Virus record (IMG/VR): IMGVR_UViG_3300019845_000023 | Location: 5,058-69,057 of that record | Strand: one strand, 5' to 3' | Source: a virus | Taxonomy: Duplodnaviria; Heunggongvirae; Uroviricota; Caudoviricetes | Length of the DNA: 64,000 bases | In this document: in pieces, positions 7,666-60,757 of the stretch | Layout: every line of letters starts with the position of its first letter | Numbering within the stretch: position 1 is the first letter of the stretch | Position numbers and translations under genes: made by a program | Notes under the pieces: model-generated | What the model saw: the letters and a program-made list of their open reading frames with translations, nothing else | Databases searched by the model: none | Told to the model about the DNA's origin: nothing

Positions 7666-7692
7666 ATTTAAAATTGTCTTTCTCTCTTGACC

Positions 7693-7739: not shown

Positions 7740-7757
7740 ATTTGTTATTGAAGATTA

Positions 7758-8169: not shown

Positions 8170-8188
8170 ATTTCTATCTTGTGCCCTT

Positions 8189-8263
8189 TGGAGATACTGG
8201 TGGGAGTCGAACCCACGACTCCAGTTTTGCAGACTGGTGTCTTAGCCTCTTGACGACAGTATC
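8189..8263 (-). tRNA. tRNA-Cys (GCA) with Glu-type D-arm
   Basis: loop CUGCAAA; D-arm UCGUCAAGAGGCUAAGACA. Confidence 0.55.
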
Positions 8264-8286
8264 TCCAAAAGGCACAAGAATTAAGG

Positions 8287-8667: not shown

Positions 8668-8684
8668 CTTTAAACCCCTTTCTA

Positions 8685-8732
8685 ATTTTCTATAAATATT
8701 ATATCATATTTTATAGAAAAAGTCAAATTTTT
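8685..8732 (-). promoter_or_regulatory. consensus promoter block
   Basis: same motif. Confidence 0.6.
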
Positions 8733-8763
8733 GATTTTTGTTTTTTGTTTTTCTTGGAGAAAT

Positions 8764-8838
8764 TGGCACCCTCGGTAGGAATTGAACCCACATCTCAACG
8801 TCCGTAGCGTCGCGTCCTATCCTTTGAACGACGAGGGC
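8764..8838 (-). tRNA. tRNA-Arg (ACG)
   Basis: loop CUACGGA. Confidence 0.6.
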
Positions 8839-8841
8839 ATA

Positions 8842-8918
8842 TGGTCGGAAGTGCGGGATTCGAACCCACAGCCTCGTGCGTCCAAGGCACGCCGTCTACC
8901 AAATTGACGTAACTCCCG
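8842..8918 (-). tRNA. tRNA-Pro (TGG)
   Basis: loop CUUGGAC. Confidence 0.6.
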
Positions 8919-12481: not shown

Positions 12482-12827
12482 TGGTGGAGGCGAGGAGAAT
12501 CGAACTCCTGTCCGAACCTCGTCATATCTATCGTCTACAAGCTTAGTCCATTTTTTTATACAAGTTTCACGCCTTAAAGGACAAACAGTCTGTTAACTCG
12601 TCTTGTCAAGATAGTCCATCAGGCACAGACAAGAACGTGCAAGTGAACCGTTTTTTATATAGACCATATCACAGTGTAGCTTTCACTGTTGAATGATATG
12701 GCAAAGTGTTAAAAGTGCTGCTCAGGCAGCGATTGCATAATCTGCGTTTATATTTAAAAGTGGCTATATGGGTGCCGCCCGCTTGCAGATAGGGAACTCA
12801 GAAATCCGTCGAAACCTTTACGCCCCC
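12482..12827 (-). ncRNA. ssrA: tmRNA (SsrA-like)
   Basis: 5' GGGGGCG...GGUUUCGACGG; 3' GGACAGGAGUUCGAUUCUCCUCGCCUCCACCA; G3-U70; internal tag frame ...ADYAIAA-UGA. Confidence 0.6.
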
Positions 12828-18083: not shown

Positions 18084-18261
18084 CTATTTCTCCGAACTCT
18101 GAATTGTATTCTACGCAATAATGCATTACGCCGTGCCCCTGCACGATGAGGTCCATCCATTGACAGACCTCTGCGTGCTTCTGTGCCCATTCATTTATTT
18201 CTGCAAGCTCGTCATTGGAAATGCGAGCGTCAGCCTTATCCCAAAGTAATCCCCCTGCCAT
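17995..18261 (-). CDS. hypothetical Cys-rich protein
   Basis: ORF track. Confidence 0.45.
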   Translation of the reverse strand: MAGGLLWDKADARISNDELAEINEWAQKHAEVCQWMDLIVQGHGVMHYCVEYNSEFGEIDVGAYCTCGKRYYTGCGEMPPVGEGFKDV

Positions 18262-19391
18262 TATGCGTCCTCCTTTAACTCAATCTTGAAAAGCGAAATG
18301 AACTTCTTGGTATCCATAGTCTCTACGGCATTTACAAGACGACCGTCGTACTCCGCGAAGTACAATGCACCGTACTTGTTCTTACCGTAGTCCTGTGCGA
18401 ACCACTTACGTGCAGTACGGTCGCCCTCCTCGAATGGATGCTCATTCTTCCAAAGAGCTACGTCCTGACGAATCTTCTCCTCTATACCCTCAGCACGGTC
18501 AATCTGATGCTTAACGTCGTCAAACACAGACTGGTACTCAGGGAAGTAAGATAAGAACTCGTAGTGGTCATTTGCACGAATAAGGTCTACGATACGCTCA
18601 AGAGTTAAAACACCATTGTTCTTTGCCTTGTGCATCTCAAAGTAAAGAAGTGTCTTAATCTTTACACGCTCATTGTACTGGTCACGAACTACGATGCCCT
18701 CATGACCCTCTGGCATATCTGCAACAAGCTGACGGTAGTCATTCTCGTTATTTAAGATATAAGCCTTTGGTATCTCAACTCTAAGCATCTTAGAGTATGC
18801 ATGAAGTGCAGGGTTAGTTAACTCGCGTAAGGTTGTCATATAACGCATAGAGAGAAGGTATACCTTAGTCTCAGGATAGTCGATGACTACCTTATTGTAA
18901 GGAGATACAAGCTCGAAAGTCCAGCAGATATTCTCGTAACGATTGCCTACAAAAGTAGACAAAGGAAGAACAGACTCGAAAAGCTCACCGAAGTTCTTGT
19001 AAGGACCTACACCCGCAAGCTCAGCCTTGAAAGCATCAATAGTACCGTTGGTAGAAAGATGCCACTTGCCACGAGCATACCATACAGACATAATAGAGCC
19101 GTCAATCTTCTCGGTTGCAACGGCAGTATTCCAGTCGAGCTTAGCTGCGTAGAACTCGTCTACATTGAAGAACTTCTTGAACGCGTAGCGAACTACACGG
19201 AAGTTGTCCTGAGAATCAAGTATAAGACCACGAGCCTCCTTGCAAATTTCCTGAGAGAAGTCGGAAGCTATTTGGTTATACTTGAAAAGAACGAAGCCGT
19301 CGTCCTCAGAAATCTTTAAGTTGTAAGGCGCATCAGCCAAAAGCTCACGCCAGTTATCGTGTGCAAGGATAAACTCCTGTATCTTTAACAT
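18261..19391 (-). CDS. RNA ligase 1 (T4 RnlA family)
   Basis: nucleotidyltransferase motif I TEKIDGS, EGIVVR motif IV, KIK motif V; start trimmed to MLKIQ after GGGAGAG RBS. Confidence 0.7.
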   Translation of the reverse strand: MLKIQEFILAHDNWRELLADAPYNLKISEDDGFVLFKYNQIASDFSQEICKEARGLILDSQDNFRVVRYAFKKFFNVDEFYAAKLDWNTAVATEKIDGSIMSVWYARGKWHLSTNGTIDAFKAELAGVGPYKNFGELFESVLPLSTFVGNRYENICWTFELVSPYNKVVIDYPETKVYLLSMRYMTTLRELTNPALHAYSKMLRVEIPKAYILNNENDYRQLVADMPEGHEGIVVRDQYNERVKIKTLLYFEMHKAKNNGVLTLERIVDLIRANDHYEFLSYFPEYQSVFDDVKHQIDRAEGIEEKIRQDVALWKNEHPFEEGDRTARKWFAQDYGKNKYGALYFAEYDGRLVNAVETMDTKKFISLFKIELKEDA

Positions 19392-19393
19392 TT

Positions 19394-19606
19394 TTATCTC
19401 TCCCTTATGTATTGCCAAAGCTGATTACCAGCTTTTAACATCGCTTTTATTTCTTTACTATTTTCAATTTGTTCTCTCTCTTCTGGAGTATAAAGCGACA
19501 TAGACCAGCCGCAGAAAGCGGGACTATCGCCTTCATCGAAATCATAATTAAATCTATCAATTATTATTTCGATTTCTTCTTTCGTGAGGTCAAGAGTTAC
19601 TTTCAT
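19394..19606 (-). CDS. hypothetical protein
   Basis: ORF track. Confidence 0.45.
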   Translation of the reverse strand: MKVTLDLTKEEIEIIIDRFNYDFDEGDSPAFCGWSMSLYTPEEREQIENSKEIKAMLKAGNQLWQYIRER

Positions 19607-33372: not shown

Positions 33373-34305
33373 TTATCTGCTCTTAAGCATATCTCTTACG
33401 TATGTCATTGTAAGGCTACCGCAAATCTTACCAAAGTTCTCGCAAGCTGCGACTACCTCTGGCTCCTCCTTACGGCAATCCTCATACATCATCTTAGGAA
33501 GTACCTTTGCGATTGCTCCCATATCGTGCTCGTCCCAATCAGGTCTAAGCTGACCCTCATCGACAAGCTTCTGAAGACACTTCTCAGTTCTACGAGCAGT
33601 TGCAACACTTGCTATGTACTGTCTCTCAGCCTCTCTCTTCTTGAGCTCCTCTGGGTCTACAGGCTTGTGATGGTCCTGATGAACCTCGGAAAACTTCTCT
33701 GCGACAATCTTAAGGTATGAAGGAGTTCTGCTGTTCTTGTTGTCAAGTCTGTCCTGAGACTTAATAACGACGCCCTCACCACAAGGCTCTGCGCCGAGCA
33801 TAGACTGACCTACAAGCTGGTAAACAGTATCCCAACCTCTGAACTCACCTGTGTAGAAGATAGGAACAAAGTAGATTACCTGCTGAGTAAGCTGTACTGC
33901 GTTCTCAAGTCCCTTGAAGATTGCGTATGTGTCCTCGTGAGGGAGGTACTCCTCTGTCTGAGTATCCCATACGTCGAACATATAGAAGTTCTTGTATCTG
34001 TTCTCAGGGTACTTGATTGTATGCTTTGTAAGCCACTCGCCGAAGATTACATATCTGCCGTGCTGTGTAAGCATATCAATCTGAGAAACGTTGAGCTGCT
34101 GTGCCCAGTTCCAGAAACCGTTGAGTGTGTTAGCCTCATTAAGCTGGTTCTTACGAGAAAACGCAAGAACAGTATTTGTTGTGGGGTCATATGTGAATGA
34201 TGCATTTGAGCCGTCAACCTTCTCGGTAATCGTTACCTGCTCACCGAGTGAAAAGACGGTATCATACTTCTCCTTGAAACGCTCGATATCTACATACTTT
34301 TTCAT
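33373..34305 (-). CDS. RNA ligase 2-family (Rnl2-like) nick-sealing ligase
   Basis: motif I TEKVDGSN, FGEW (III), EGVVIK (IV), K.K (V). Confidence 0.7.
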   Translation of the reverse strand: MKKYVDIERFKEKYDTVFSLGEQVTITEKVDGSNASFTYDPTTNTVLAFSRKNQLNEANTLNGFWNWAQQLNVSQIDMLTQHGRYVIFGEWLTKHTIKYPENRYKNFYMFDVWDTQTEEYLPHEDTYAIFKGLENAVQLTQQVIYFVPIFYTGEFRGWDTVYQLVGQSMLGAEPCGEGVVIKSQDRLDNKNSRTPSYLKIVAEKFSEVHQDHHKPVDPEELKKREAERQYIASVATARRTEKCLQKLVDEGQLRPDWDEHDMGAIAKVLPKMMYEDCRKEEPEVVAACENFGKICGSLTMTYVRDMLKSR

Positions 34306-35741: not shown

Positions 35742-37148
35742 TCAATTTTCGCTGGGCTTTGCGCTTGAGTCCTTCTGGACGCCGAAGCCTTTCGCCATAA
35801 GCATTGCCATCAAAAAATCCTTATTGTCGCCGCCAGACTTATCGCTGAGCATAAGGAAAGGAAGCATTGCATTCATGTCCATTGTGCCGCCGTTAGCATT
35901 GTTCATCATAGAGAACATAAGCATAGAGCTCATATCTGTATTACCGTCGCTGAACATAAGGAAAGGAAGTATGTTGCCGAATGGATTCTCAGCATTTGCA
36001 TTTGTGCCGCCGAACATATCCATAGGTGTCATAATCTTAGTGTAGAAATCGAAACCGAAGATAGACTTCTTAGGTGCGAAAGTCTTGATTTCATTGCTCT
36101 TAGGCTCAACAGCAACGATAGCTGTCTTTGCGTTCTCCTTTACGACAAGAGGAGTTCTGTCAGCAGGGTGAAGGATTACATCACCAACTGCAAGCTGTGA
36201 CTTAGACACAGGCATTGCAAAGATAGGAATGTCCATTACCATATCAGATACATTGGTAAGTGAACCGTCCTCATTATATACGTTATATGTTACGCCGTCT
36301 TCTGCCTTAAAAGCGATACCGTTGAAAGAATACTTGATGGTATTTGTATCTACCTTACCGAACATAAAGTCGCCCATTAACTTTTTCATATTCATTGATT
36401 TTTCCTCCTTAATAACTTCTATACTTTTGCCATTTTTAAACACTATTTTAGGCTCTGAATTTACATCACTCAAAGAGAATGAATGTATTGCATCGCCTAT
36501 TGTTACTACGTCATCTTTCTTCACATAGAGTGAAGAAGGTTCGTATTTAACATATACTGGCTCACACTTTTTAATGTCGTAATCTATAATTTTAGACCAT
36601 GCGCCAAGTGCGCTAAGAGCCTCGAGTTTAGCAGGCATACACTTGTAATTAACGTCTCGAAATACTTCTAAGACCTGCATCCAGCTATCGCCATAAGGGT
36701 CTTTCTTAATTGTTCCCATAGACACGGAATCAACATCTGACAAATGCTGAGTTACACGAGCATTGGTCAATACCTTGATTTTGTCACCAACGGCTAAGCC
36801 ATTAAGTGTAGCAACTTCGTAGTAATAGACCTTTGCGTCAGGACTATAATTACCGTCTCTATTAGGGAAGATAGCTGCAATAAAATCGCCTTTAGCCATT
36901 TCTTCCTCCTTCTTTCCTGTTAATACTTCAAGATTAAAAGCTGGTGTGCTAAATGATACTGATATACTTTTATTGGTCTACCACGGCATTTCAAGCATAC
37001 CGCTGCAGGAACAAACTGAATCGTAAGAAGTCTCAACTTTTAGGTCTGAAACTTCCCCGAAGTCAATCTGAATTTTCTCGCCTTTTGAATTTGTGCCCCA
37101 ACCTATAAGTTTATAGGTCTATGGCATAGTAGGGTACTCACTGTACAT
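35742..37148 (-). CDS. hypothetical protein with Met-rich C-terminal repeats; N-terminal extension read through two in-frame TAG codons
   Basis: frame open from ATG 37148 (GGAGGA RBS) through TAG 37119-37121 and TAG 36978-36980 into the annotated MAKGD ORF. Confidence 0.45.
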
Positions 37149-37980
37149 TCTCATTCCTCCAGATTTCGTCGCTTAACGCACGCTTAATGATGAGGAATTT
37201 CTGCTCGTCCATACTGTCAAGAACAGACTGGTCAAAGTTTAGACCCTCTTCTCTGTACTTAGCGAGCCAAGCATCTGCCTCTTCAACGATACGCTTACCA
37301 AGGTCCTTAGCCTGAGCCGCAGAGTAGTTGATTTGTCTATCCTTAACACCAAGGATTTCACCCCAGTATCTCTGCATATTCAAGTCTGAACCCTTAAATG
37401 GGTTAAGAATGTACGCGTAGTCTTCCTGCTTAAATTTTGAAAGCATAGCAAGCAATCTCATTTCGTGAGAGAGCTGCTTTGAAGCATAACCGTACTTCTC
37501 GACTTCCTCGACCTGAACTGGATAAGGGTGGTCAAGAGCATTAAACTTTTCCTTAATCTGACCGACAATAGCCTTTAATGCAGACTCTTCATTTGCGTGT
37601 GCAATAGCGTCCCTATTAAGAATAAACCAGAACATAGGGCTGTAATCTGGATTTACCCAGAACCAGTCTGAGTAAAGAAGCTCAACAAAGTTTGAAGAAC
37701 CCTTCTTCCACTGGTCAACGATAAGACGAATGTCCTTAACATCGACCTGACCGTTGAAAGGCATTTCTTCAACATGGCTTACAGGCTTTGAGTTGAATAC
37801 AATATCCCTCAGTGAAGGAACGACAACTGCCTTGTAATCGTAGTCACTCTTAGGTCGTCTCAGATTGTAGTTCTGAGCACCGTATAGAGCGATAAAGATT
37901 ACATTAAAACCTCTTTTCTGAAGCTCCCTGACTGCAACGTGCATAAGCTCCTCTTCTGGCATTATCACTTTCTCGTCCAT
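37138..37980 (-). CDS. Pol-beta superfamily nucleotidyltransferase
   Basis: YGAQNYNLRRPKSDYDY = hG[GSA]x10SDhDh signature. Confidence 0.5.
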   Translation of the reverse strand: MDEKVIMPEEELMHVAVRELQKRGFNVIFIALYGAQNYNLRRPKSDYDYKAVVVPSLRDIVFNSKPVSHVEEMPFNGQVDVKDIRLIVDQWKKGSSNFVELLYSDWFWVNPDYSPMFWFILNRDAIAHANEESALKAIVGQIKEKFNALDHPYPVQVEEVEKYGYASKQLSHEMRLLAMLSKFKQEDYAYILNPFKGSDLNMQRYWGEILGVKDRQINYSAAQAKDLGKRIVEEADAWLAKYREEGLNFDQSVLDSMDEQKFLIIKRALSDEIWRNENVQ

Positions 37981-39967: not shown

Positions 39968-41431
39968 TTACTTCCAAGAATATACATCCTTAGAAAGTAT
40001 CTTGACCATAGCCTCATAAGCATTGCACTCGATGAGTTCTCTAAGGTCATTGAATGGACCTACACCAGAACCGCTGCAGTAACTGATGTTATCGTAGATA
40101 GTACCGATGTAGTTGTCCTGACGTGCCTCAACATTCCAGCTTACGACCTTAGTCTCAGGGAGACCAGCCTCGCGAAGCTTCTTGTTCCACTTACCGACAA
40201 TGGAGTCAGCAGTGTCTGGACGTACGTCGTAGTCGAACTGACCGTCTGATATAACTACAAGAGCCTTTGGAACCTCGCGGGTTCTTACAGCAGTCTTATA
40301 GATAAGCTCGAAAGCCTTATCAAGGTTAGTGTTGTAACCCATGTCAGTTGACATTACCTTTCTAAGACACTCCTCAAGTCCCCAGCTATCCTCGAGGGAT
40401 ATGAAGTGAGGATTGTTAGTGAATGTCATATAAAGGTTGTGGTATGCACCCTTATTACGCTGAGCGAAGTAAGTTGCAAGACCAACAGAAGTTGCCATAG
40501 GCTGACCTAACATGGAGCCAGATACATCTGCCATTACGACAACATCGTACTCTCCGCTAACGTAGTTAGGAAGAGCCTTCCACTGAGCTTCGTCTACAGG
40601 GTCAAGATGGTAACGAGAGCTACCATACATATACTTGTACACGATGTCGTATGGGTAAAGAGTAGAAGCATTTACCTTAGCCTCGCCCTTTTCAAGGGAA
40701 GCCTTGTAAGCTGCAAATCTCTCCTGACAACGCTTGTTGTAAGTCTTGATATATCTGCTCATTGCAACAGATGGAACAGACTGGAAGTCTATCTCATCCC
40801 ACTTACCAGCAGACATCTTTGTCTCGACGACGCCGATGTGTGCACGAAGCTTTGCAAGAGTCTTACGATATGTACGCTCGGTAAGACCGAGGTAACGACA
40901 AGCTCTACGACCAAGCTTACGAGTCTCCTGAGAAGAAGTATTGATAGATGGCATCCACTTAGCAAGGATGGAGATAGGCTGGTTCTTAGCCATACCCTCT
41001 GCATCAGCACGAAGCTGCTTGGAGATAAACTCCCATACCTTTGCCTCAATTACTGGATACTTTCCGTTAAGGAAGATGAAAAGGTCATCCCATCTACCTG
41101 TATCAACAATGGTCTGAAGATTGCGGACAATCTTCTGAGGGTCGATACGACCGAGTTCTGCAAGCAGAATACGACCGATACGTCTCTCACCAAGACCACA
41201 GTCTCTGATGTTACGAGCGTAAAGGATAAGGTTATCTGCAAGAGTAGGGTTCTCCTGTCTTGCTGCCTTCCAATCGCTGATTATAGCGGAAGCATCTCTC
41301 TTTCTCATACCACCTATCTTTGCATAGATGTCAAGAAGAGCGCCGCCGTTTGTTGAACTATATGCGAGTCCACCGTTTTCGGTAAGTGTCTGATTAGCCA
41401 TTGCCTTAGCTGCGTTTACGAAATTACTCAT
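39968..41431 (-). CDS. vWA-domain protein with large N-terminal domain (possible TROVE/Ro60-like)
   Basis: MIDAS motif DVSGSM; vWA fold at C-terminus; N-terminal helical domain; start at MSNF after GGAGAG RBS. Confidence 0.6.
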   Translation of the reverse strand: MSNFVNAAKAMANQTLTENGGLAYSSTNGGALLDIYAKIGGMRKRDASAIISDWKAARQENPTLADNLILYARNIRDCGLGERRIGRILLAELGRIDPQKIVRNLQTIVDTGRWDDLFIFLNGKYPVIEAKVWEFISKQLRADAEGMAKNQPISILAKWMPSINTSSQETRKLGRRACRYLGLTERTYRKTLAKLRAHIGVVETKMSAGKWDEIDFQSVPSVAMSRYIKTYNKRCQERFAAYKASLEKGEAKVNASTLYPYDIVYKYMYGSSRYHLDPVDEAQWKALPNYVSGEYDVVVMADVSGSMLGQPMATSVGLATYFAQRNKGAYHNLYMTFTNNPHFISLEDSWGLEECLRKVMSTDMGYNTNLDKAFELIYKTAVRTREVPKALVVISDGQFDYDVRPDTADSIVGKWNKKLREAGLPETKVVSWNVEARQDNYIGTIYDNISYCSGSGVGPFNDLRELIECNAYEAMVKILSKDVYSWK

Positions 41432-41470
41432 TACACATCTCTCCTTCAAGATAATTATTTTTGTTTGCTG

Positions 41471-42462: not shown

Positions 42463-42620
42463 ATGCTGCCCGAGACAGGAATCGAACCGTTACCCTCCGC
42501 CTTCTTCAGGCGGCGTGCACACCTATGCACTACAAGGGCAGTCTGGTCGGGGAGGATGGGATTCGAACCCACACTCATCGTGCTCCTAACGCATTAATTG
42601 AGTAGCTGACGTATCTTTAT
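42463..42620 (-). other. two degenerate tRNA-like segments (G33 loop, broken T-stem; 3' half without partner)
   Basis: partial cloverleaf elements only. Confidence 0.3.
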
Positions 42621-42696
42621 TGGTGCCGAGGGGGAGAGTCGAACTCCCTACGCCAAGCTCTTCAGGCTTGCGCTCTACCAGTTGAGCTACCTCGGC
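42621..42696 (-). tRNA. tRNA-Phe (GAA), second copy
   Basis: perfect acceptor; loop CUGAAGA. Confidence 0.6.
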
Positions 42697-42720
42697 ATTA
42701 TCAAGACAGTTATACTTATA

Positions 42721-42828
42721 AACTCTACCCGTTGAGCTACGCGACGCGAACGCCACGGTGGGATTCGAACCCACATCCCCCTTTGTGCAAAAAAGAAAAA
42801 GTTTTAAGTGTTTTGCTGAACTGCCTTA
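42721..42828 (-). other. orphan tRNA 5' half next to orphan T-arm/acceptor fragment
   Basis: GCGUCGCGUAGCUCAACGGGUAGAGU then UUAUAAG...UGUCUUGAUAAU. Confidence 0.3.
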
Positions 42829-42829
42829 T

Positions 42830-42906
42830 TGGTCGGGGCGGTGGGATTCGAACCCACAGAATCGTGATTTTGAGTCACGCACGTTTACCAGTTACGTCAC
42901 GCCCCG
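42830..42906 (-). tRNA. class-I-shaped tRNA with Leu anticodon CAA
   Basis: 5-nt variable loop; loop CUCAAAA; A73. Confidence 0.5.
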
Positions 42907-43033
42907 ATATAAAATGCAAAATATGAAGAGGATACCACACCCTGCAGAGGCCCATATTTATTTATATCCCGCACCATAAGCTTCTTCGCGCTTCAATCCG
43001 TCGACTGTCCTCATGGCCATCCGTGCGGTTTTC

Positions 43034-43109
43034 TGGGTGGAAAGATGAGATTCGAACTCACACCTTCATGGGCCACAACCATGCGCTCTACCATTAAGCT
43101 ACTCACCAC
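43034..43109 (-). tRNA. tRNA-His (GTG) with encoded G-1
   Basis: loop UUGUGGC; C73; extra 5' G. Confidence 0.6.
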
Positions 43110-43143
43110 ATCAATTCCGACTTTAACCCAAGTCGGCAGGGTT

Positions 43144-43176
43144 AAATAAAACCAAATCTGCCTCCACACAGTGGAG
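43144..43176 (-). terminator. rho-independent terminator inside tRNA array 2
   Basis: CUCCAC-UGU-GUGGAG then GCAGAUUUGGUUUUAUUU. Confidence 0.45.
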
Positions 43177-43216
43177 TTAGCTGTAGACAATAGCACTGAA
43201 CATAACTATTCCTACT

Positions 43217-43292
43217 TGGTCTCGGTTATAGGACTCGAACCTATGACTTTCTCCTTGTAAGGGAGACACTCTCGCCGCTGAGTTAAACCGAG
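43217..43292 (-). tRNA. tRNA-Val (TAC)
   Basis: loop CUUACAA. Confidence 0.65.
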
Positions 43293-43321
43293 ATTATCAA
43301 GACTCTCTATACCTTGCGGTT

Positions 43322-43394
43322 CCGGAAGGGGGATTCGAACCCCCATATGTACGATTTTAGGTCGTATGACTTAGCCACTTTGTCTATTCTGGAA
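43322..43394 (-). tRNA. class-I-shaped tRNA with anticodon TAA and C33
   Basis: loop CCUAAAA; no encoded CCA. Confidence 0.4.
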
Positions 43395-43541
43395 AGGAAT
43401 ATTGCTGAAGAGTCTTTATTTGGTTCGGGTATGCTTATCGGAGTCAAGTACTCGCAGTTCCTCTTTCGAGGTATTTTCTTCGGAGTAAAGACCTTAAGGT
43501 TCGCGTAACCTCTCGTGCCCTAACCCATATCCGAAACCCGA

Positions 43542-43618
43542 TGGTGCCGTTAGAGGGACTCGAACCCACACTAACCAGTTCCTAAGACTGGCGCCTCTGC
43601 CAATTGGGCTATAACGGC
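43542..43618 (-). tRNA. class-I-shaped tRNA with Leu anticodon TAG
   Basis: perfect acceptor; loop CUUAGGA. Confidence 0.5.
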
Positions 43619-43682
43619 ATTGTTAAACAGTTCGAGTTACGGTCAAACTGAAGGTAAGCACCGATTAAGCAGCCAGATACTC

Positions 43683-43913
43683 CTATTCAGAATAATCAAG
43701 CTTTTCAATTCTTTTCATATCGGAATATGTAACCTGCTTCCAACCACTCTTAGGGTGGTTAAAGGCACACATCCAGCAGGAACAATGAATTTTACCTTTG
43801 GCTAACTTTCCGTCGCAATCACAAAACCAATGATGAGTTTCATCAATGATATGTCTTTTGCGAGCTATGTGTTGTCTTCTCTGATAACGATAGTATGCTC
43901 TATCTCTTTCCAT
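43683..43913 (-). CDS. Cys/His-rich small protein
   Basis: ORF track; embedded in tRNA array. Confidence 0.4.
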   Translation of the reverse strand: MERDRAYYRYQRRQHIARKRHIIDETHHWFCDCDGKLAKGKIHCSCWMCAFNHPKSGWKQVTYSDMKRIEKLDYSE

Positions 43914-44053
43914 TGTGCCGCCCTCCGAAAAATTATAATAACGAATATAGGCAACCCACTACTTACTTTCCTTACCAGCGTAAATTAAGCACCTTCGCTA
44001 CGTATTGCTACTACCTCAGTATTTAATTTACTATGCCCTTCCCTCGATATTCG

Positions 44054-44575
44054 TTACTTAGTAATTCTGTTTGCGATACCAGAAGCAGCGTAGCTGTCTG
44101 GCTTGATAGCAACCTCGAAGCCGCAAGTCTTAATCCAAGAGGTAATCTCAGTAATAAGCTGATTTGTCTTACCTGCGTGACCAATGTCAGCGTGGACAGC
44201 GAAAGTAAATCTTCCGTCATTAGACATTTGCTCAAGGTCAATATCATAGTCGATAAGAGCATAAGCAAGAGCATCTACGAAACCTGTTGCGTTCTCAATA
44301 GAACGAGAAGTCTCTTCCTGTATCTTAGTCTTAAGAACTCTTATCTTTGGTATATCTTGCTTGCGATAGAAGAAAATGCCGCCATCACCGATACGGTGAA
44401 CAGCAATTACTTCCACCATTCTTGTGCACTTGTGGTTCTGGCTATCTGTACCCACAGTTATTTCGTATGAGGCGTTAGGTGCCTTTGCGATGTAGTCGGC
44501 TACAATAGAGCCTATCTGTGAATAACGAACCTTCTCACCATTACCACGAGTAAATATCTTCTCGGTAATCACGGT
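44054..44575 (-). CDS. hypothetical protein (possible RNase H-like fold)
   Basis: ORF; probable GTG start after AAGGAG. Confidence 0.4.
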   Translation of the reverse strand, partial: TVITEKIFTRGNGEKVRYSQIGSIVADYIAKAPNASYEITVGTDSQNHKCTRMVEVIAVHRIGDGGIFFYRKQDIPKIRVLKTKIQEETSRSIENATGFVDALAYALIDYDIDLEQMSNDGRFTFAVHADIGHAGKTNQLITEITSWIKTCGFEVAIKPDSYAASGIANRITK

Positions 44576-44728
44576 TAATCTCTCCTTTATATTCAAATAT
44601 TCAAGACAGTTATGTTAGCTACCTTTTGATTAAAATTCAAATGCTTTTAAAGAATTGCTGGACTGTCTTAGTGGTGATAATACGTGCCGCGGCACCACAG
44701 ACCGCTATATGTGGTCGCACGTATTCTC

Positions 44729-44815
44729 TGGTCGGCTCGGTGGGACTCGAACCCACACGCCCTTGCGGGCACCAGCTCCTTAGGCTGGCGCGTCTGCCAA
44801 TTCCGCCACGAGCCG
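44729..44815 (-). tRNA. tRNA-Leu (AAG), class II
   Basis: long variable arm GCCC-UUGC-GGGC; loop CUAAGGA. Confidence 0.55.
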
Positions 44816-44883
44816 ATTTATCAAGACTCATCTTGTGTTTTTATATGCCCAAAAAACTTTCAGAGTTGCTGCTGAGTCTTATC

Positions 44884-44960
44884 TGGTCGGAGATGCGGGA
44901 CTCGAACCCACGGCCTCTCGCTCCCAAGGCGAGCGCTCTACCAAACTGAGCTAATCCCCG
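44884..44960 (-). tRNA. tRNA-Pro (TGG), second copy
   Basis: loop CUUGGGA. Confidence 0.6.
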
Positions 44961-45030
44961 ATTAATTGGCGGCTTCAGGGACGCTACAAGATAACCAACC
45001 GCCAGAGTTATCACGCACTTAATGTCCCAA

Positions 45031-45107
45031 TGGTCGGCGAGATGGGATTCGAACCCACACTGAATGGATTTTAAGTCCATTGCCTCTGCCTGTTGCGCTA
45101 CTCGCCG
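45031..45107 (-). tRNA. class-I-shaped tRNA with Leu anticodon TAA
   Basis: perfect acceptor; loop CUUAAAA. Confidence 0.5.
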
Positions 45108-45174
45108 ATAAGCCTATTAAATAGGCTACAAGATATAACCCCTTTTACCGCGGGGCAGTCTCCCCAATATAATT

Positions 45175-45227
45175 GGTTGGGGAGATAGGAATTGAACCTA
45201 CAAAAGTGAGTTGCTGATATATCTTAG
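45175..45227 (-). other. orphan tRNA 3' fragment (T-arm plus acceptor CUCCCCA-A-CCA)
   Basis: GUAGGUUCAAUUCCUAU T-arm without a 5' partner. Confidence 0.3.
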
Positions 45228-45303
45228 TGGTCACGCCAGCGAGGCTCGAACTCGCATTTTAGCCTTGAAAGAGCTACTTCCTACACCTGTTAGAAGATGG
45301 CGC
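45228..45303 (-). tRNA. tRNA-Glu (TTC)
   Basis: loop CUUUCAA; Glu-like D region. Confidence 0.5.
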
Positions 45304-45324
45304 GATTCATCAAGATGTGCTTTT

Positions 45325-45400
45325 ACCTCTCATGAGGATTTGAACCTTACCGTCCCCTTTTTGGGGCTGTGCTACCAGATTACACCATAACGCCGAGAGG
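45325..45400 (-). tRNA. tRNA-like gene with atypical anticodon arm (CCCC-AAAAA-GGGG)
   Basis: good acceptor and T-arm; anticodon not assignable. Confidence 0.35.
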
Positions 45401-45456
45401 ATTTAAAATGGCGGCGTTAAAAACTTTAAAGAAAAAGTTGCTGACACATCTTTATT

Positions 45457-45530
45457 TGGTTGCGCAGACAGGACTCGAACCTATATCAACGGATAATGAC
45501 TCCGTTATGCTACCTTTGCACTACCGCGCG
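45457..45530 (-). tRNA. tRNA-Met-like (CAT) with C1-A72 mismatch (initiator-like?)
   Basis: stem ACGGA/UCCGU; loop GUCAUUA. Confidence 0.45.
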
Positions 45531-45539
45531 TTCTCTTTA

Positions 45540-45587
45540 TTTTCTATAATTATTATAGCATAAATTATAAAAAATGTCAAATTTTTG
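45540..45587 (-). promoter_or_regulatory. promoter block TTGACA-17-TATAAT within tRNA array
   Basis: AAATTTGACATTTTTTATAATTTATGCTATAAT. Confidence 0.6.
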
Positions 45588-46381
45588 ATTTCTAAGTCAT
45601 TTCGTAAGCACTCTCACCGCGTGAAGGTAGACTTAATTGAGAGTATTTCTTCAACAATCTTGGGTGCCGCCACATCTCCTGCACACAGGAGACAGGGTAC
45701 TCGAACCCCTCCATCGCCAGTTGCTGAAAGGAATTTCAACCTAATCTCATTAGTTATAAAGCCACTGAGCTGTAGCTATGCGAATAATTTGCCGCAATCA
45801 ACGGGCGACTATTCTAATCGCCGTCATAACCAACACAAGTTATGAACCATTGTAATGTCGTCAGGTTCCCACACTTACGCAGTAAACGCGCCGCTTAACC
45901 ACTTGGTTTAGGTATGTTCATAACCAAGAAATTTTCCCTTTTACATCGTCAGCAGTAGATGTCGTAATTTTATCGGTACTTCCCCGAATGGACATTGCGT
46001 GCCTATCGTACTCACGGTAATGTACGTAACCGCTGCCGTGCCAGCCAATACACGGATTTATACTGCCATCACACAGTCGGGCAGGTCTGTGATGGGTCTC
46101 TGCCCAATTTGGTTTTTGTGGTTTTAAACAGTCCAATGAGTAAACCTCAACTCAACTGTAGAGAATATTTGGTGGTTCGCTCTCTCTCAGCGAAGGTGTA
46201 AAGGGAGTTTAAACCACTTCCTCGTGGGGTTTTAACGTCTTTTCCTTGACAAGTCTCGCCGCAACCAGTACCATTTAAGGTACGCCAATCACTACGGGTT
46301 GCACATCCTTACTTTACCTGCCCAACAGGTCGGCGGTTGGACCCGCCAGTGTCCCTTTTATTCTCTTTAAGTAATTGGCAA

Positions 46382-46456
46382 TGGTGTGGGATAGGAGAAT
46401 CGAACTCCCACCGCCTGTTTGGAAGACAGGAATACTGACCGTTATACGAATCCCAC
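46382..46456 (-). tRNA. tRNA-Gly (TCC)
   Basis: perfect acceptor; loop CUUCCAA. Confidence 0.7.
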
Positions 46457-46469
46457 ATTAGTTCTTATT

Positions 46470-46518
46470 TTTAAGTATAATTTATTATAACATATTCTAA
46501 GAAAAAAGTCAAATTTTT
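46470..46518 (-). promoter_or_regulatory. promoter block variant within tRNA array
   Basis: TTGACT-17-TATAAT. Confidence 0.55.
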
Positions 46519-46528
46519 AATAGTGATT

Positions 46529-46654
46529 GTCTTTGTAGGGGTCTGTCTTCTTCTTATCATGGGTTGCGGCGATGATGTCTGGCATAACCTCTATGAGCTT
46601 CCAAAGAAGTACGGTTACGCAAACAACTATTAGGTACTGCATCAGACAGACCTC
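46529..46654 (-). CDS. small membrane peptide (41 aa)
   Basis: hand translation; AAGGAGG RBS. Confidence 0.35.
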
Positions 46655-46666
46655 CTTTCAAGACAT

Positions 46667-46743
46667 TGGTTTCTCCGCTTGGATTCGAACCAAGGAATGG
46701 CAGTTTTAGAGACTGCTGTCTTAAGCCTCTTGACGACGGAGAA
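46667..46743 (-). tRNA. amber suppressor tRNA (anticodon CTA), Glu/Gln-type body
   Basis: perfect acceptor UUCUCCG/CGGAGAA; stem GCAGU/ACUGC; loop CUCUAAA; D-arm UCGUCAAGAGGCUUAAGACA. Confidence 0.65.
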
Positions 46744-46747
46744 TTAT

Positions 46748-46822
46748 GGTTGCCGCTCTGGGAATCGAACCCAGTAAGACGGAGTTAGAGTCCGTTGTCC
46801 TCGCCAACTAAACGAAGCGGCA
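46748..46822 (-). tRNA. amber suppressor tRNA (anticodon CTA), Glu-type body
   Basis: perfect acceptor UGCCGCU/AGCGGCA; stem ACGGA/UCCGU; loop CUCUAAC. Confidence 0.65.
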
Positions 46823-46907
46823 AAATTCTCCAAGACGCCTTTACATTTACCTTTTAAACATTTTAAGTGTTCTATTGTAAGAAATGATTGCAGGATGCGT
46901 CTTTCAT

Positions 46908-46955
46908 TCTTATAAAATAATTATAACATATTTTATAAAAATTGTCAAATTTTTG
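46908..46955 (-). promoter_or_regulatory. promoter block variant
   Basis: TTGACA...TATAAT. Confidence 0.5.
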
Positions 46956-46963
46956 AGTGCTTA

Positions 46964-47227
46964 TTAGTCTACAGCAGTTGTAGTAGTTGTCTCTGTTGTA
47001 GTCTCTTCTGCCTCAGTTTCTGTGGTAGTAGTTGTTTCTTCGGTAGCCTCAGTTGTCTCCTCTGCTACTGTTGTAGCTTCAGTTGTTTCAGCTTCTGTTG
47101 TTTCAACTTCTGTTGTAACTACTGTTGTGGTTTCACTGTTGCTTCCGCTATCCTTTGATGTATCGCAAGAAACAAAAGTTACAGCCATAGCGCCTGCCAT
47201 AAGACAAGCTAAAATAGCCTTCTTCAT
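46964..47227 (-). CDS. Thr/Glu-rich lipoprotein
   Basis: signal peptide with lipobox-like Cys. Confidence 0.5.
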   Translation of the reverse strand: MKKAILACLMAGAMAVTFVSCDTSKDSGSNSETTTVVTTEVETTEAETTEATTVAEETTEATEETTTTTETEAEETTTETTTTTAVD

Positions 47228-47580
47228 TGTGTTTCACCTCTTTGCTTTTTAAATAAGAACCCTTGCTTGTATATCGAAACCTCGTATTATATCCACAGTC
47301 ACATCGTGATTTACTCCCACACAAGAGGGCTACCATGGAGAAGGGGCACGCCCCGAGATGGGCGGCAATAATCATAGAACGCTATACGAAAAGCATAACG
47401 TACTAAGGAACTCTTTCCACACGTGGTGGATGAGCTATCGTATTTCTACGACCCCGCACAGCGGGTAGAAGTCATAATGACCTCTTAACAGTAATTTTGA
47501 TTGAGCCGCGTTTCCTCTTTTAAGTCTGACTAACTGCGGTAAAAAATCCAGACTTCAAAATTACTTTTAAGAAATCATTA

Positions 47581-47675
47581 TGGCGCGGTCGGGGAGACTC
47601 GAACTCCCACACCGATTGCTCGATTACTCATAGTTTAGCAAACTACTGCCTTACCAAATTAGGCTTACGACCGCA
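47581..47675 (-). tRNA. tRNA-Ser (GCT), class II
   Basis: perfect acceptor; loop UUGCUAA; long variable arm. Confidence 0.55.
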
Positions 47676-47807
47676 TTATCAAGATACGTTTTTTCGATAT
47701 ACGTTGTTCTACCAGTTGAACTACTCCGCCATATTGGCGACGGAGGCAGGACTTGAACCTACACCTACGGCGTGATAGGCAATCTATTGCTTGCTGACGT
47801 ATCTTAG
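47676..47807 (-). other. orphan tRNA 5' half with leader module plus orphan 3' fragment
   Basis: GGCGGAGUAGUUCAACUGGUAGAAC...AAAAAACGUAUCUUGAUAAU; T-arm GUAGGUUCAAGUCCUGC. Confidence 0.35.
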
Positions 47808-47809
47808 TT

Positions 47810-47887
47810 TGGTGTGCCTGATGGGACTCGAACCCATGACCCCCTGATTAAAAGTCAGGTGTTCTATGCCAACTGAACTACAGGCAC
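47810..47887 (-). tRNA. tRNA-Lys (TTT)
   Basis: perfect acceptor; loop CUUUUAA. Confidence 0.7.
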
Positions 47888-47986
47888 ATTAACATCCGCT
47901 GAGCATCTTATTGGAACGCTTTCACCATGCGAGACCTCTATTGTTTATTTGCTGGCAGAATTTGAACCATTAACCATAGCGAATAT

Positions 47987-48062
47987 TTGGTGGGACGCCT
48001 GAGATTCGAACTCAGATAAGCTCGGTTATGAGCCGAGTGCACTAACCATTGTACTAACGTCC
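47987..48062 (-). tRNA. tRNA-Ile2/Met (CAT), Ile-derived body
   Basis: anticodon arm CUCGG-CUCAUAA-CCGAG parallels tRNA-Ile(GAT) at 5981. Confidence 0.55.
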
Positions 48063-48119
48063 CATTAAAGAAAGGAAAGGGGCATACTTTCAAGATGGCT
48101 ATGCCAGACCACTAAGTTA

Positions 48120-48193
48120 TTGGCTTCGGCAAAGGGAGTCGAACCCCTATCAACAGAGCCAAAATCTGTTGTCCTACCATTAGACGATACCGA
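48120..48193 (-). tRNA. tRNA-Gln (TTG)
   Basis: loop UUUUGGC; D region shared with Gln(CTG) at 4532. Confidence 0.6.
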
Positions 48194-48222
48194 AATCTAT
48201 GGAGTCATAAAGACTCCAAATA

Positions 48223-51396: not shown

Positions 51397-52320
51397 TTAG
51401 TGCGCCGCCTTATCAGCTTCGTGAAGACGCTCAAGGTCACGCATAAAGTCTGCACTATAACGAGCTGCCATCTTCTCCATATACTTCTCGCCCTTGTAGT
51501 GGTCCATATGGTGGTTGATTAAAAGAACGATATAGTGATTACGGTCAGAGCAACCAGTATGAGATAAGTAGAAGTATGCTCCTACATTCTCATGGTTATA
51601 GAAGTGTGCCTCTTCTGTAGGGTTGTTGCGAGCGTCGTGATAAACCTTGCAGTAAGGCTTACCAATATCGTGGAAGAGTGCCGCAGTTCTTACTAAGTCA
51701 GAACGAGTTGAGTCTCTTACTGTCTTATTCATCTCGTCAACGATATACTTCTCTGCCGCTCTCATATGTGCGCCGATAGTTAAAGAGTGGTGATGATTAT
51801 CGTGAGGGATATTATCAGCTTCGAAAAGCATTTCTCCTATTACATCGAAGTTATTATCATTACCGAAAGTCATTATCTTATCCCAACCCTCAGAGTAGTC
51901 AGGTACCTCGAAGCTTCTAAGCATACGGTCGAGAACGAACTCAGGAACGACACGCTCACGGGAAGCATTACGCTCCTTTACAACCTCGAAAGGAGGTACG
52001 CAAAGAACGCATATCTTTACAAGGTCAGGTATCTTAGATAACTCCTTTAAGAAGCCTATACGACGCTTAGCATTGACGTTTGTTGCGTCATAGTAAACAT
52101 CGACATTAGCCTTTAAAAGGTCGCGAGTACGAGTTAACATTAAGTTGAATACTTCTGCGTTATGAGTCTGGTCATTAACGTCTCCAAATACGTCCTGCCG
52201 TATCTGGTCAGAAGATACATAAGCTGCTTCAGAGAAGTAAGCCTTATATAAAGTAGACTTACCAGAGCCAGGGAGTCCTACAGTGAAAAATAATCTTGGC
52301 ATATTTAGTCTCCTTTCCAT
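51397..52320 (-). CDS. polynucleotide kinase fused to an HD phosphohydrolase
   Basis: N-terminus LFFTVGLPGSGKST...SSDQIRQDVFG matches T4 Pnk kinase; C-terminal H..HD motifs. Confidence 0.65.
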   Translation of the reverse strand: MERRLNMPRLFFTVGLPGSGKSTLYKAYFSEAAYVSSDQIRQDVFGDVNDQTHNAEVFNLMLTRTRDLLKANVDVYYDATNVNAKRRIGFLKELSKIPDLVKICVLCVPPFEVVKERNASRERVVPEFVLDRMLRSFEVPDYSEGWDKIMTFGNDNNFDVIGEMLFEADNIPHDNHHHSLTIGAHMRAAEKYIVDEMNKTVRDSTRSDLVRTAALFHDIGKPYCKVYHDARNNPTEEAHFYNHENVGAYFYLSHTGCSDRNHYIVLLINHHMDHYKGEKYMEKMAARYSADFMRDLERLHEADKAAH

Positions 52321-56874: not shown

Positions 56875-57906
56875 TTATCCCTTTCTGATGTTATATCCAT
56901 ACTGGTCGGAGTGATAAAATTCTATCCAGTATTTTTCTTTTTCGGTCTGTTCTTCTTTTGGGCAAACCTCTACGATTTCCCAAGTGAAGTTCTCCAAACC
57001 TTCTTTGAACATAGCGTCATAGATTTGACCAGCTATTCGTTCAATATTACAGCCGCGCTTAGCATGGGTACGCCAACGGTCTATAAACTTTGTTGTTTTA
57101 CCAATATAAACTTTTTCATCATTTATATTAGTAATCTTATAAATGCCGCCCTTATCTTTCTTGTCACCAAGAACTCGTTTAAAGAGCTCCTCTATTTGAG
57201 TTTTATAGTAAGTCTCATATAGGAGTTTATAAAAGATTTCTGGACGGGAGAAGCCAGGTGCCATAGACTTTAACTTAGCTATATCTGAAAGAGTTAAAGT
57301 ATCGAGAGTAATGTGATAGAAGTCGCGTTGCTTACGAACTTCCTCATCTTTCTTAAACTAAGCTACGATTGCCGCCTGTCTTTGTTCAAAGGCTTTAATT
57401 TCTTCAGTCAACGCCGCCTTTTTCAAATTTATTTCGTCGCTGAACGTCTAAAAATTTACAGCCAACTGCTCCTTATCTTTCTCATATTGAGCCTGAACAC
57501 CAGCTATCTTCTTTTCTCGTTCTGCTGTCGCCGCGGCAACGATTTCAGCATTTTCTTTTTGACGCTCAAGTTCAGCTTCCCTATCCATTTTAGCATACTC
57601 TTCACGAGTTGCTATATATTGTGCGTCAAGTCTTTGTACATCGGTATTATATTGAGCTTTCTTCTCTTCGAGCATACAGGTGTATTCTCTTAATGATGCC
57701 TGTTTTCCTGCAATCTCCTTTTGGATTTCATCCGTCATTTCCTTGACGGCGGCATCTTTCTTCTCAATAAGTCCTTTCTTAACTTTCTCCTATTCGGAAG
57801 AAAACTTTAGCTTACCTTTAAGAGACTTAACCGATAGAATATCGCAGACGGCATATGTAATGCCGCCACACACGATACCAAGTAATATGACCAATATCCA
57901 TATCAT
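56875..57906 (-). CDS. TM helix, coiled coil and GIY-YIG nuclease fusion read through three in-frame TAG codons
   Basis: ATGA overlap at 57906; TAGs at 57790-57792, 57448-57450, 57358-57360; no TAA/TGA over 344 codons; GIYKITN..YIGKT motif in C-terminal part. Confidence 0.5.
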
Positions 57907-59821: not shown

Positions 59822-60322
59822 TTAGATAGTGCGGAAGTGGTTATATTTTCCATCTCCCCACCATTGGTTGCAAGTCCAGCCTGCAAATGTGTCGGGGTTG
59901 TTAAAGTAATAATCTACAGCGTCTGCCATCGCTGAGTAATGGATTGAGCCGCCGCAGAAATAATCTGAATATTTATTAAATCCCCAAGGAGCACAAGTCT
60001 GGTCGAGTACTGCTTCAACCGAACCAGGCCAACGAGAATCATTTACCATATTCATTACTGAAGCTACGATTTTTGCTCTTTCGTAGACATCAGGCATTCC
60101 ACCGTATTCACTTGCGACAATCTTGCAAAGCAATGTGTAATCATAATCGCTAACTACAGGAGCGGTTGCATTGCTTACATACGGATTTACTATTTCTAAA
60201 TTTGGATTACATTCGCTACATTTTCTACACTCAATATCGTTTGTATCTGTGATTTCATAACAAGTTGAATCAACCCAGTGACAAGTTGACTTATGTATAT
60301 AGTGTGTACTTGGTTTGTACAC
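59822..60322 (-). CDS. SleB-like cell-wall hydrolase (candidate lysin)
   Basis: Cys-rich N-terminus; RWPGSVEAVL..QF..W motif. Confidence 0.4.
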   Translation of the reverse strand: MYKPSTHYIHKSTCHWVDSTCYEITDTNDIECRKCSECNPNLEIVNPYVSNATAPVVSDYDYTLLCKIVASEYGGMPDVYERAKIVASVMNMVNDSRWPGSVEAVLDQTCAPWGFNKYSDYFCGGSIHYSAMADAVDYYFNNPDTFAGWTCNQWWGDGKYNHFRTI

Positions 60323-60346
60323 TGTGTACTCTCTTGGTGTCTCTGC

Positions 60347-60757
60347 CTATGTTGGTGCCGCTTCAGTAACTTCGGCAGTTGTTACTGGTGCCGCCGGCTC
60401 AGTTTCTTCAACTGAGGAAGTGGATGTGCTTGTGAGTGTTGTAGTTGTGGATGTGCTTGTGAGCGAAGTTGTGGATGTGCTTGTGGTTGTAGTTGAGGTA
60501 ACAGTGGTAGCTGTTGTGACTGGAGTTGTTGTAACTACTGTTGTAGTTGTTGACTCAGTTATTTCAGTAACCATTGCCGCCTTTACTGGCAGGTTTGTGC
60601 CGTGAGCTTTGTCAGTTCTTACCACGGTAGGTGTCGCTAAACAAAGCACGACAGCAGCTGCAAGAACTGCTGTCGCAACCTGAATTGTTCTTTTTACAGT
60701 TATTTTCATTATAAATTCCTCCTTTTCGTCCTTGCGGACTATGAGGGGAACACGCAT
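60347..60757 (-). CDS. Thr-rich secreted (mucin-like) protein
   Basis: signal peptide; (T/S/V) repeats. Confidence 0.45.
   Translation of the reverse strand: MRVPLIVRKDEKEEFIMKITVKRTIQVATAVLAAAVVLCLATPTVVRTDKAHGTNLPVKAAMVTEITESTTTTVVTTTPVTTATTVTSTTTTSTSTTSLTSTSTTTTLTSTSTSSVEETEPAAPVTTAEVTEAAPT

Follow-up and report, generated by a model that had tools for sequence, protein, structure and literature searches.

Three genes for type I tRNA-Leu, without the long variable arm, are probably ordinary leucine decoders of a large phage

In a 64,000-nucleotide (nt) stretch of a Caudoviricetes genome (positions 5,058 to 69,057 of IMG/VR virus record IMGVR_UViG_3300019845_000023; hereafter, the window), three genes of a tRNA array, with the leucine anticodons CAA, UAG and UAA, very probably encode functional type I tRNA-Leu, i.e., ordinary leucine decoders without the long variable arm. 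Such an arm is said to mark tRNA-Leu everywhere but in animal mitochondria (PMC9976931), and almost all bacterial tRNA-Leu have been described as type II (PMC6614811). A sequence-only reading of the window had pointed to four array tRNAs with short variable loops and Leu anticodons, and had taken them either for minimalist Leu isoacceptors or for tRNAs charged by a different aminoacyl-tRNA synthetase, which would make them a recoding device. Our comparisons favoured the first view for three of these genes; the fourth, a UAA copy with C33 (the C33 element), is neither a credible Leu isoacceptor nor evidence for recoding. The genes in question were:

42830-42906, minus strand: type I tRNA-Leu(CAA), 77 nt, 67.2 bits, variable loop AUUCU, A73, encoded CCA, C1:G72
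43542-43618, minus strand: type I tRNA-Leu(UAG), 77 nt, 60.2 bits, variable loop UUAGU, G37, A73, CCA
45031-45107, minus strand: type I tRNA-Leu(UAA), 77 nt, 54.8 bits, variable loop UCAGU, A37, A73, CCA, C1:G72
44729-44815, minus strand: class II tRNA-Leu(AAG), 87 nt, 54.2 bits, G9, A73
43318-43393, minus strand: C33 element, an aberrant tRNA-like gene called Leu(UAA), 76 nt, 51.1 bits, A73, 3' trailer ACCG without CCA

tRNA genes were detected with ARAGORN and with the Rfam tRNA covariance model (threshold 29 bits). The two methods agreed on the short-loop tRNAs with anticodons CAA, UAA, UAG and UAA that had been noticed beforehand: in the ARAGORN segmentation each of the four had a variable loop of 5 nt and A73, and in the Rfam alignments their variable region carried no insertion. 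Since all four were strong tRNA matches within an array of 19 tRNA calls, a chance resemblance was excluded. The covariance-model alignments revealed neither a hidden long arm nor another anticodon register. The same analysis bore out the canonical class II tRNA-Leu(AAG) reported beside them, which has a 15-nt variable region with a 4-bp stem, seen as a 12-nt insertion in the Rfam alignment. The boundaries first proposed for the three type I genes were retained, whereas those of the second gene of the four had to be moved from 43322-43394 to 43318/43320-43393.

The three type I genes have 7-nt anticodon loops with U33 (CUCAAAA in the CAA gene, CUUAGGA in the UAG gene and CUUAAAA in the UAA gene), the U8:A14 and A15:U48 pairs, G18G19 and a normal T loop, and they keep a leucine-type D arm. 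Position 37 is that expected of canonical Leu isoacceptors, since A37 follows A36 in the two UUR readers (UAA and CAA) and G37 follows G36 in the CUN reader (UAG). The tertiary core of the CAA gene is class-II-like, with U8-G9 and a D arm (ACGUAACUGGUAAACGU) of the same layout as that of the window's class II gene (GCGGAAUUGGCAGACGC). The UAG gene (D arm GCCCAAUUGGCAGAGGC) and the UAA gene have a remodelled type I core, with U8-A9, C13, a D arm of the form GCC-C-AAYNGGCAGA-GGC and a variable loop of the form NNAGU.

The same array slots were then compared between related phages. These were metagenome contigs of the Joint Genome Institute (JGI) found through the Ro-like gene adjoining the array, together with one contig (L407) found through a tRNA pattern; the RNaseH-like protein encoded inside the array, used as a query, retrieved no relatives in viral contigs, and an exact look-up gave one 1.6-kb contig. 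Identity of the Ro-like protein to that of the window was 98% in L255 and L256, 87% in L261, 81% in L242, L257 and L268, and 74% in L243. The arrays of L242, L257 and L268 are identical, L242 and L268 being the same contig. The order of the tRNAs was identical in the window, in all the relatives found through the Ro-like gene and in L407, and the forms found in the leucine slots were:

UAA slot: type I in the window, L255 and L256; class II in L261 (87 nt), L243 (85 nt) and L242 (93 nt)
CAA slot: type I in the window, L255, L256, L242 and L407; class II in L261 and L243 (87 nt)
UAG slot: type I in all but L242, which has an 11-nt variable region
AAG slot: type I in L243; class II in the window, L255, L256 and L407

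Type I genes and their class II partners were 76-87% identical outside a single indel of 8-12 nt at the arm hairpin. In the UAA slot, the acceptor stem CGGCGAG was common to the window, L261 and L243, with 82% identity outside the indel; the CAA gene was 78% identical to its class II partner in L261 outside one indel, and the UAG gene was 87% identical to the window's own class II Leu(AAG) gene outside the arm indel. Moreover, the type I CAA gene of L407 has a D arm (GUGCAAUUGGCAGACAC) that is unmistakably of the Leu type. In the UAG copies of L256, L261, L243 and L407, three stems (acceptor, anticodon and T) had changed in a compensatory manner, and in L256 the variable-arm stem of the class II AAG gene was likewise maintained by compensatory changes. 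The interchange of forms within a slot, together with the 76-87% identity, implies that the short genes are Leu tRNAs, and the comparison gives direct evidence that Leu tRNAs of these slots can gain or lose the arm over short evolutionary times.

To assess the tRNA bodies independently of their anticodons, we used a naive-Bayes isotype classifier trained on 1275 non-redundant tRNAs from viral contigs, whose input was all structural positions minus the anticodon and the variable-region length, and which learned Leu from long-arm genes only. In five-fold cross-validation by locus its accuracy was 75%; it identified 61 of the 68 class II Leu tRNAs and called Leu in five of 1207 non-Leu tRNAs. The UAG gene was classified as Leu (9.2 bits; next class, -6.5), as was the UAA gene (6.1 bits; next class, 0.2), and the class II AAG gene reached 20.0 bits for Leu. 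Among the viral short tRNAs with Leu anticodons, 93/161 were classed as Leu. Pairwise identity among the window's tRNAs was also tried as a guide to ancestry and was discarded as too noisy, all of them being about 70% alike.

Type I tRNA-Leu genes proved widespread in viruses. A strict pattern that required a D loop of the Leu type, a Leu anticodon of the form YAR and the spacing of class I tRNAs (5-nt variable loop) matched at least 120 IMG/VR contigs, against about two estimated for random sequence of the collection's approximate size. ARAGORN found 153 short and 17 long Leu tRNAs at these loci, next to 56 long and one short Ser and 20 long and no short Tyr; A73 was present in 152 and a 5-nt loop in 151 of the 153 short Leu genes. 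In a generic viral sample, drawn with a T-arm plus CCA pattern (116 new loci, 103 of which held 607 tRNAs), Leu tRNAs were long in 47 cases, intermediate in four and short in 15, a type I share of about 23%, and all Ser (44/44) and all Tyr (16/16) were long. Arm loss is specific to Leu, which matches the report that leucyl-tRNA synthetase (LeuRS) alone ignores the variable arm (PMC9976931). When 50 type I Leu sequences (three from the window, seven from related phages and 40 from viral loci) were aligned, RNAalifold recovered the cloverleaf; 20 of its 21 pairs showed compensatory changes, and A14 and A73 were invariant.

Similar genes were found in cultured phages and in bacteria. The window's UAA gene matched 369 INPHARED records without a gap across the variable region, mostly T5-like Salmonella and Escherichia phages, with others from Erwinia, Enterococcus, Pseudomonas, Lactobacillus, Synechococcus and Mycobacterium phages; it was 89.8% identical over 59 nt to an annotated tRNA-Leu of Pseudomonas phage ZC03. 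With one genome per bacterial species, the strict pattern gave at least 120 matches, and the large majority of the 80 listed were Actinomycetota chromosomes. ARAGORN applied to 120 bacterial loci mostly found a single type I tRNA-Leu per locus, with anticodon UAA in 101 and CAA in 16. Their D arm is that of the window's UAG and UAA genes, and their variable loop, NCAGU, resembles that of these two genes. In Streptomyces coelicolor, only tRNA-Leu(CAA) has been described as type I, the UAA isoacceptor (bldA) being described as type II (PMC6614811). In the searchable literature we found no description of the scale of type I tRNA-Leu in phages, of the restriction of arm loss to Leu, of the flipping between forms or of the prevalence of type I Leu(UAA) in Actinomycetota.

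The viral sample also separated the two forms by their tertiary core. Class II Leu genes had G9 in 60/63 and a purine at position 13 in 56/63, whereas type I genes had A9 in 111/142 and C13 in 118/142; the commonest type I combination was A9 and C13 with a variable loop ending in AGU (78/142), and in a minority G9 and a purine at position 13 went with loops like NUUCU or NUUUU. From these distributions we infer loss of the arm followed by re-optimisation of the tertiary core, in which case the window's UAG and UAA genes would represent the settled form and its CAA gene a recent arm loss.

Codon usage, counted over the window's 87 minus-strand open reading frames (ORFs), gave the following shares of Leu codons: CUU 43%, CUC 20%, UUA 19%, UUG 8%, CUG 6% and CUA 4%. 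CUU and CUC (63%) were assigned to the class II AAG gene, and UUA, UUG and CUA/CUG (19%, 8% and 10%) to the three type I genes, which are the only decoders of UUR and CUA/CUG in the window's arrays; together with the AAG gene they cover all six Leu codons. The type I tRNAs would be transcribed within the phage tRNA array, with a 3' end formed by the encoded CCA, and the host LeuRS would charge them with leucine, presumably by recognising A73 and the elbow formed by D loop and T loop (U8:A14, A15:U48, G18G19) rather than the anticodon or the arm. They would then decode UUG, CUA/CUG and UUA as leucine, beside the class II AAG tRNA for CUU/CUC, and the outcome would be a self-sufficient phage set of Leu decoders with standard codon meanings. 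Consistently with this scheme, bacterial LeuRS depends on A73, A14, A15-U48 and G18G19 but needs neither the arm nor the anticodon (PMC9976931), and the type I tRNA-Leu(CAA) of S. coelicolor, the one experimental precedent found, is leucylated by its own LeuRS (PMC6614811).

Several observations weigh against this assignment. The D stem of the UAA gene at 45031 is interrupted by a G12:G23 mismatch, and the CAA gene ranked Leu second in the classifier (Pro 9.1, Leu 7.5), which we ascribe to C1:G72 with A73, an acceptor end also present in Tyr, Lys, Glu and class II Leu tRNAs of the phage. A15:U48, tried as a Leu marker, was dropped, because many non-Leu tRNAs of the phage share this pair and it does not discriminate here. 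Furthermore, E. coli LeuRS did not charge a transcript of the S. coelicolor type I tRNA-Leu(CAA) (PMC6614811), so that there is no certainty that any given bacterial LeuRS would accept such tRNAs, and charging in non-actinobacterial hosts is a prediction. The host that would do the charging may belong to the Oscillospiraceae, on the weak hint of one glycoside hydrolase whose cellular homologues, 46-50% identical, are named Oscillospiraceae; it is probably not an actinobacterium.

The closest known counterparts are the type I tRNA-Leu of S. coelicolor and other Actinomycetota, which like the window genes have a 5-nt loop, A73 and a Leu anticodon, and whose D arm, UA-GCCCAAYYGGCAGAGGC-A, is shared by the window's UAG and UAA genes. 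The window genes differ in being phage-encoded within a tRNA array, in that CAA, UAA and UAG are all type I, and in the class-II-like core (G9) kept by the CAA gene; in addition, special features of the S. coelicolor LeuRS may be missing from the enzyme of the phage's host, and charging was assayed there and is predicted here. Short tRNA-Leu genes of cultured phages (Leu-TAA of the T5-like Salmonella phage Kenya-K16, Leu-TAG of Enterococcus phage EFDG1, and those of ZC03 and cyanophage P-RSM6) are likewise class I in shape and 74-77 nt long, with A73 and a D arm of the Leu type; they are annotated as tRNA-Leu and often stand beside an 84-nt class II Leu gene of the same phage, although they belong to other hosts and other phage families; the searchable papers held no discussion of them as a distinct structural class or as a charging substrate. 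E. coli tRNA-Leu engineered without the arm retains activity provided that A73 and the D/T interactions are preserved (PMC9976931), the same mechanism as that proposed here, but these variants are laboratory constructs, unlike the natural window genes. Animal mitochondrial tRNA-Leu also combines a short variable loop with A73 and A14 as identity elements (PMC9976931), but it arose separately, is served by a dedicated mitochondrial LeuRS and is often relaxed in structure, and its sequence is unrelated to that of the phage and actinobacterial genes.

Another explanation accepts the short genes as Leu decoders and holds that their arm loss was selected, as an escape from host toxins that prefer class II tRNAs. 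We consider it unlikely, although it would account for several findings. Close relatives alternate between the type I and class II states, and type I tRNA-Leu occurs in phages of E. coli and Salmonella, bacteria whose tRNA-Leu genes are all class II. The window also carries an RNA-repair gene set around its tRNA arrays:

18261-19418, 33373-34305, 37138-37980, 39968-41449 and 51397-52320, minus strand: RNA-repair genes

This set, which is consistent with a conflict over tRNA integrity, consists of two RNA ligases (one T4 Rnl1-like, the other Rnl2-like), a nucleotidyltransferase resembling RlaP, a Ro/TROVE-like protein that includes a vWA domain, and a fusion of a kinase (AAA_33) with an HD phosphatase; a UvrD-type helicase is likewise encoded near the arrays. 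The share of short Leu tRNAs in viral contigs, about 23%, is far above that reported for bacteria in general (PMC6614811, PMC9976931). The nucleotidyltransferase toxins AbiEii and MenT3 appear to prefer long-arm class II tRNAs (bioRxiv 10.64898/2026.01.19.700257; PMC7450476), and phage tRNAs are known to replace host tRNAs attacked by defence nucleases (PMC10264068, PMC11555353). However, a neutral arm predicts the flipping equally well, and for its commonest Leu codons the phage still has a class II tRNA, Leu(AAG). Actinomycetota chromosomes use the same form without any link to phage defence, and we know of no toxin that needs the arm of tRNA-Leu specifically. MenT3 targets mainly tRNA-Ser, and the arm is not its sole determinant (PMC7450476). 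Variable arms of tRNA-Leu are unmentioned in papers on defence nucleases and phage tRNAs (PMC10264068, PMC12482277, PMC12445682, bioRxiv 10.64898/2026.07.10.737580). If selection of this kind did operate, phage Leu tRNAs would escape AbiEii/MenT-like nucleotidyltransferases or nucleases yet to be found, and translation would continue when host tRNA-Leu is disabled; the enrichment of type I in phages of hosts without it, the flipping and the adjacent RNA-repair genes would be explained, and the conserved C33 element could be a decoy rather than a decoder. The short form in phages may be neutral, as LeuRS ignores the arm, or selected via toxins that prefer long arms.

That the short Leu-anticodon genes are decaying copies without a role in translation is very improbable. 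The array does contain decaying members, namely the C33 element, whose loop is reduced to 6 nt (CCAAAA) in L261 and whose A73 is deleted in L256 and L407, and the following sequence, which had been missed by the sequence-only reading:

42465-42540, minus strand: degenerate tRNA-like sequence, ARAGORN call Leu(AAG), 33.7 bits, G33, without CCA

The D-stem mismatch of the UAA gene could be read in the same sense. Nevertheless, the three type I genes score 55-67 bits and have intact stems and an encoded CCA, and same-slot copies in relatives preserve their pairs by compensatory changes, as does the wider family with its covariation and its invariant A73; moreover, their loss would leave the window's arrays without a decoder for UUR and CUA/CUG. 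The degenerate sequence at 42465-42540 has two mismatches in the acceptor stem and two in the T stem, Leu is seventh in the classifier, and it is probably not a decoder. Its positional counterpart in L407 (7611-7685) has another anticodon loop, CGAAAGU, and in L256, L261, L242 and L243 this end of the array holds a tRNA-Ser(UGA).

The least probable explanation, to which we give hardly any weight, is recoding, in which a synthetase different from LeuRS would charge the short tRNAs and UUA, UUG or CUA in phage genes would be read as another amino acid. The Pro-like acceptor end of the CAA gene (C1:G72 and A73), the A35-A36 that UAA and CAA anticodons share with tRNA-Phe, and genuine suppressor tRNAs in the window, by which the phage manipulates decoding, would speak for it. 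Against it, the 3:70 pairs of the four genes are G:C, C:G, C:G and G:C, none being the G3:U70 of Ala; all four combine A73 with a short loop, unlike Ser (long arm and G73), and none has an extra 5' G, unlike His (G-1 and C73). The lack of G3:U70, G73 and an extra 5' G excludes the synthetases other than LeuRS that ignore the anticodon (Ala, Ser and His), and prolyl-tRNA synthetase, phenylalanyl-tRNA synthetase and the other synthetases need anticodon bases that are missing here (identity rules in PMC9976931). Furthermore, the bodies of the three type I genes are Leu-like, in relatives the same slots are occupied by ordinary class II Leu tRNAs of identical anticodon, and C1:G72 is general in the phage's tRNAs (Tyr, Lys, Glu and class II Leu). 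Recoding of stop codons is likewise opposed by the anticodons CAA, UAA, UAG and UAA, which read UUG, UUA and CUA and no stop codon.

The window's recoding device is more likely a pair of Gln-like tRNA(CUA) genes than the Leu-anticodon tRNAs. The relevant features were:

46667-46743 and 46747-46822, minus strand: tandem tRNA(CUA) pair, U1:A72, A73
56875-57906, minus strand: ORF with three in-frame TAGs and no TAA/TGA, encoding a membrane anchor, a coiled coil and a GIY-YIG domain
59822-60757, minus strand: ORF with one in-frame TAG and no TAA/TGA, encoding a signal peptide, a Ser/Thr-rich linker and a C-terminal domain

Both tRNA(CUA) genes were Gln-like in the anticodon-blind classifier (5.4 and 10.3 bits), and the pair is kept in L255, L256 and L261. 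TAG is the rarest stop of the window (5/87 ORFs), and the frame is open upstream of the last TAG for 183 codons in the ORF at 56875-57906 and for 136 codons in that at 59822-60757. Pfam found no domain across a TAG in either ORF, so the inserted amino acid cannot be read from homology. These data suggest that TAG is read as sense in some genes, probably as Gln, a situation that we liken to the TAG-to-Gln recoding by suppressor tRNAs described in phages (PMC10879173). In L242, L257 and L268, the suppressor slot holds, in place of the short pair, a 94-nt class-II-shaped tRNA(CUA) (3618-3711) with a 22-nt variable arm and A73, which may be specific for Leu, Tyr or another amino acid.

The C33 element is best considered apart from the Leu decoder set. 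One UAA copy had been reported to carry C33, and its loop is indeed CCUAAAA (C32, C33); however, the notion of a minimalist Leu isoacceptor, which suits the three type I genes, fails for this copy, whose body is not Leu-like. It has U1:A72 and an A:C mismatch at 4:69, Leu is only seventh among its classes (-9.6 bits), and its D arm is of the Glu/Gln/suppressor type, nearest to the Glu(UUC) and suppressor genes. In the L242/L257 copy, the D, anticodon and T stems differ and yet are complementary, with the loop unchanged; the L243 array lacks the element. A pattern scan for it outside this phage lineage matched two contigs only, both of them relatives. We therefore regard it as an aberrant tRNA-like element, either decaying or with a non-decoding role. 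A reading of CCUAAAA as a shifted CUA anticodon, i.e., as a disabled or frame-shifted amber suppressor, was set aside as speculation: it rests solely on the resemblance of the D arm and acceptor end to those of the suppressor genes, and the loop is not kept in L261. L243 contains a further aberrant array member (7437-7508), 72 nt long and called as Cys(ACA); its anticodon begins with A34, it has U1:A72 and lacks CCA, and in its D arm it is similar to the C33 element and the suppressor genes.

The window as a whole stems from a large phage carrying its own translation and RNA-repair toolkit. It has a G+C content of 40.8%, with nearly all genes on the minus strand, and yielded 44 tRNA calls plus one transfer-messenger RNA (tmRNA), every one on the minus strand. 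Among cultured phages we found no close relative; a megablast search with the array matched trivially, through the class II Leu gene only. The remaining features were:

2884-8918 and 42465-48194, minus strand: the two tRNA arrays
12482-12827, minus strand: phage-encoded tmRNA, 123.6 bits, tag peptide ADYAIAA
7500-7585, minus strand: tRNA-Asn(GUU) of class II shape, with a 16-nt variable region, adjoining a normal 77-nt tRNA-Asn(GUU)

Asn, Ile and Gln calls with a long variable region recurred at low frequency in the viral samples. The combination of C1:G72 and A73 was found across isotypes of the window (both Tyr, Lys(CUU), both Pro, three Leu, Glu(UUC) at 45228 and Val(UAC) at 43217), and several discriminators were unusual by E. 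coli-type identity rules, for example A73 in Glu and Gly and C73 in Thr.

These results remove a suspected sense-codon recoding device from the window and leave the amber suppressor tRNAs as its likely recoding. Type I tRNA-Leu is already known from the description and assay of the S. coelicolor tRNA and from short genes annotated as tRNA-Leu in hundreds of phage genomes, and the window adds members to it. For annotation, isotype models based on class II genes may flag type I tRNA-Leu as mismatches. Two questions are raised, namely whether E. coli LeuRS charges the type I tRNA-Leu of the bacterium's own phages, such as T5, and whether loss of the arm benefits the phage. The type I form is thus no oddity of Streptomyces or of mitochondria: it makes up about a quarter of the sampled viral Leu tRNAs and includes many chromosomal UAA and CAA isoacceptors of Actinomycetota.

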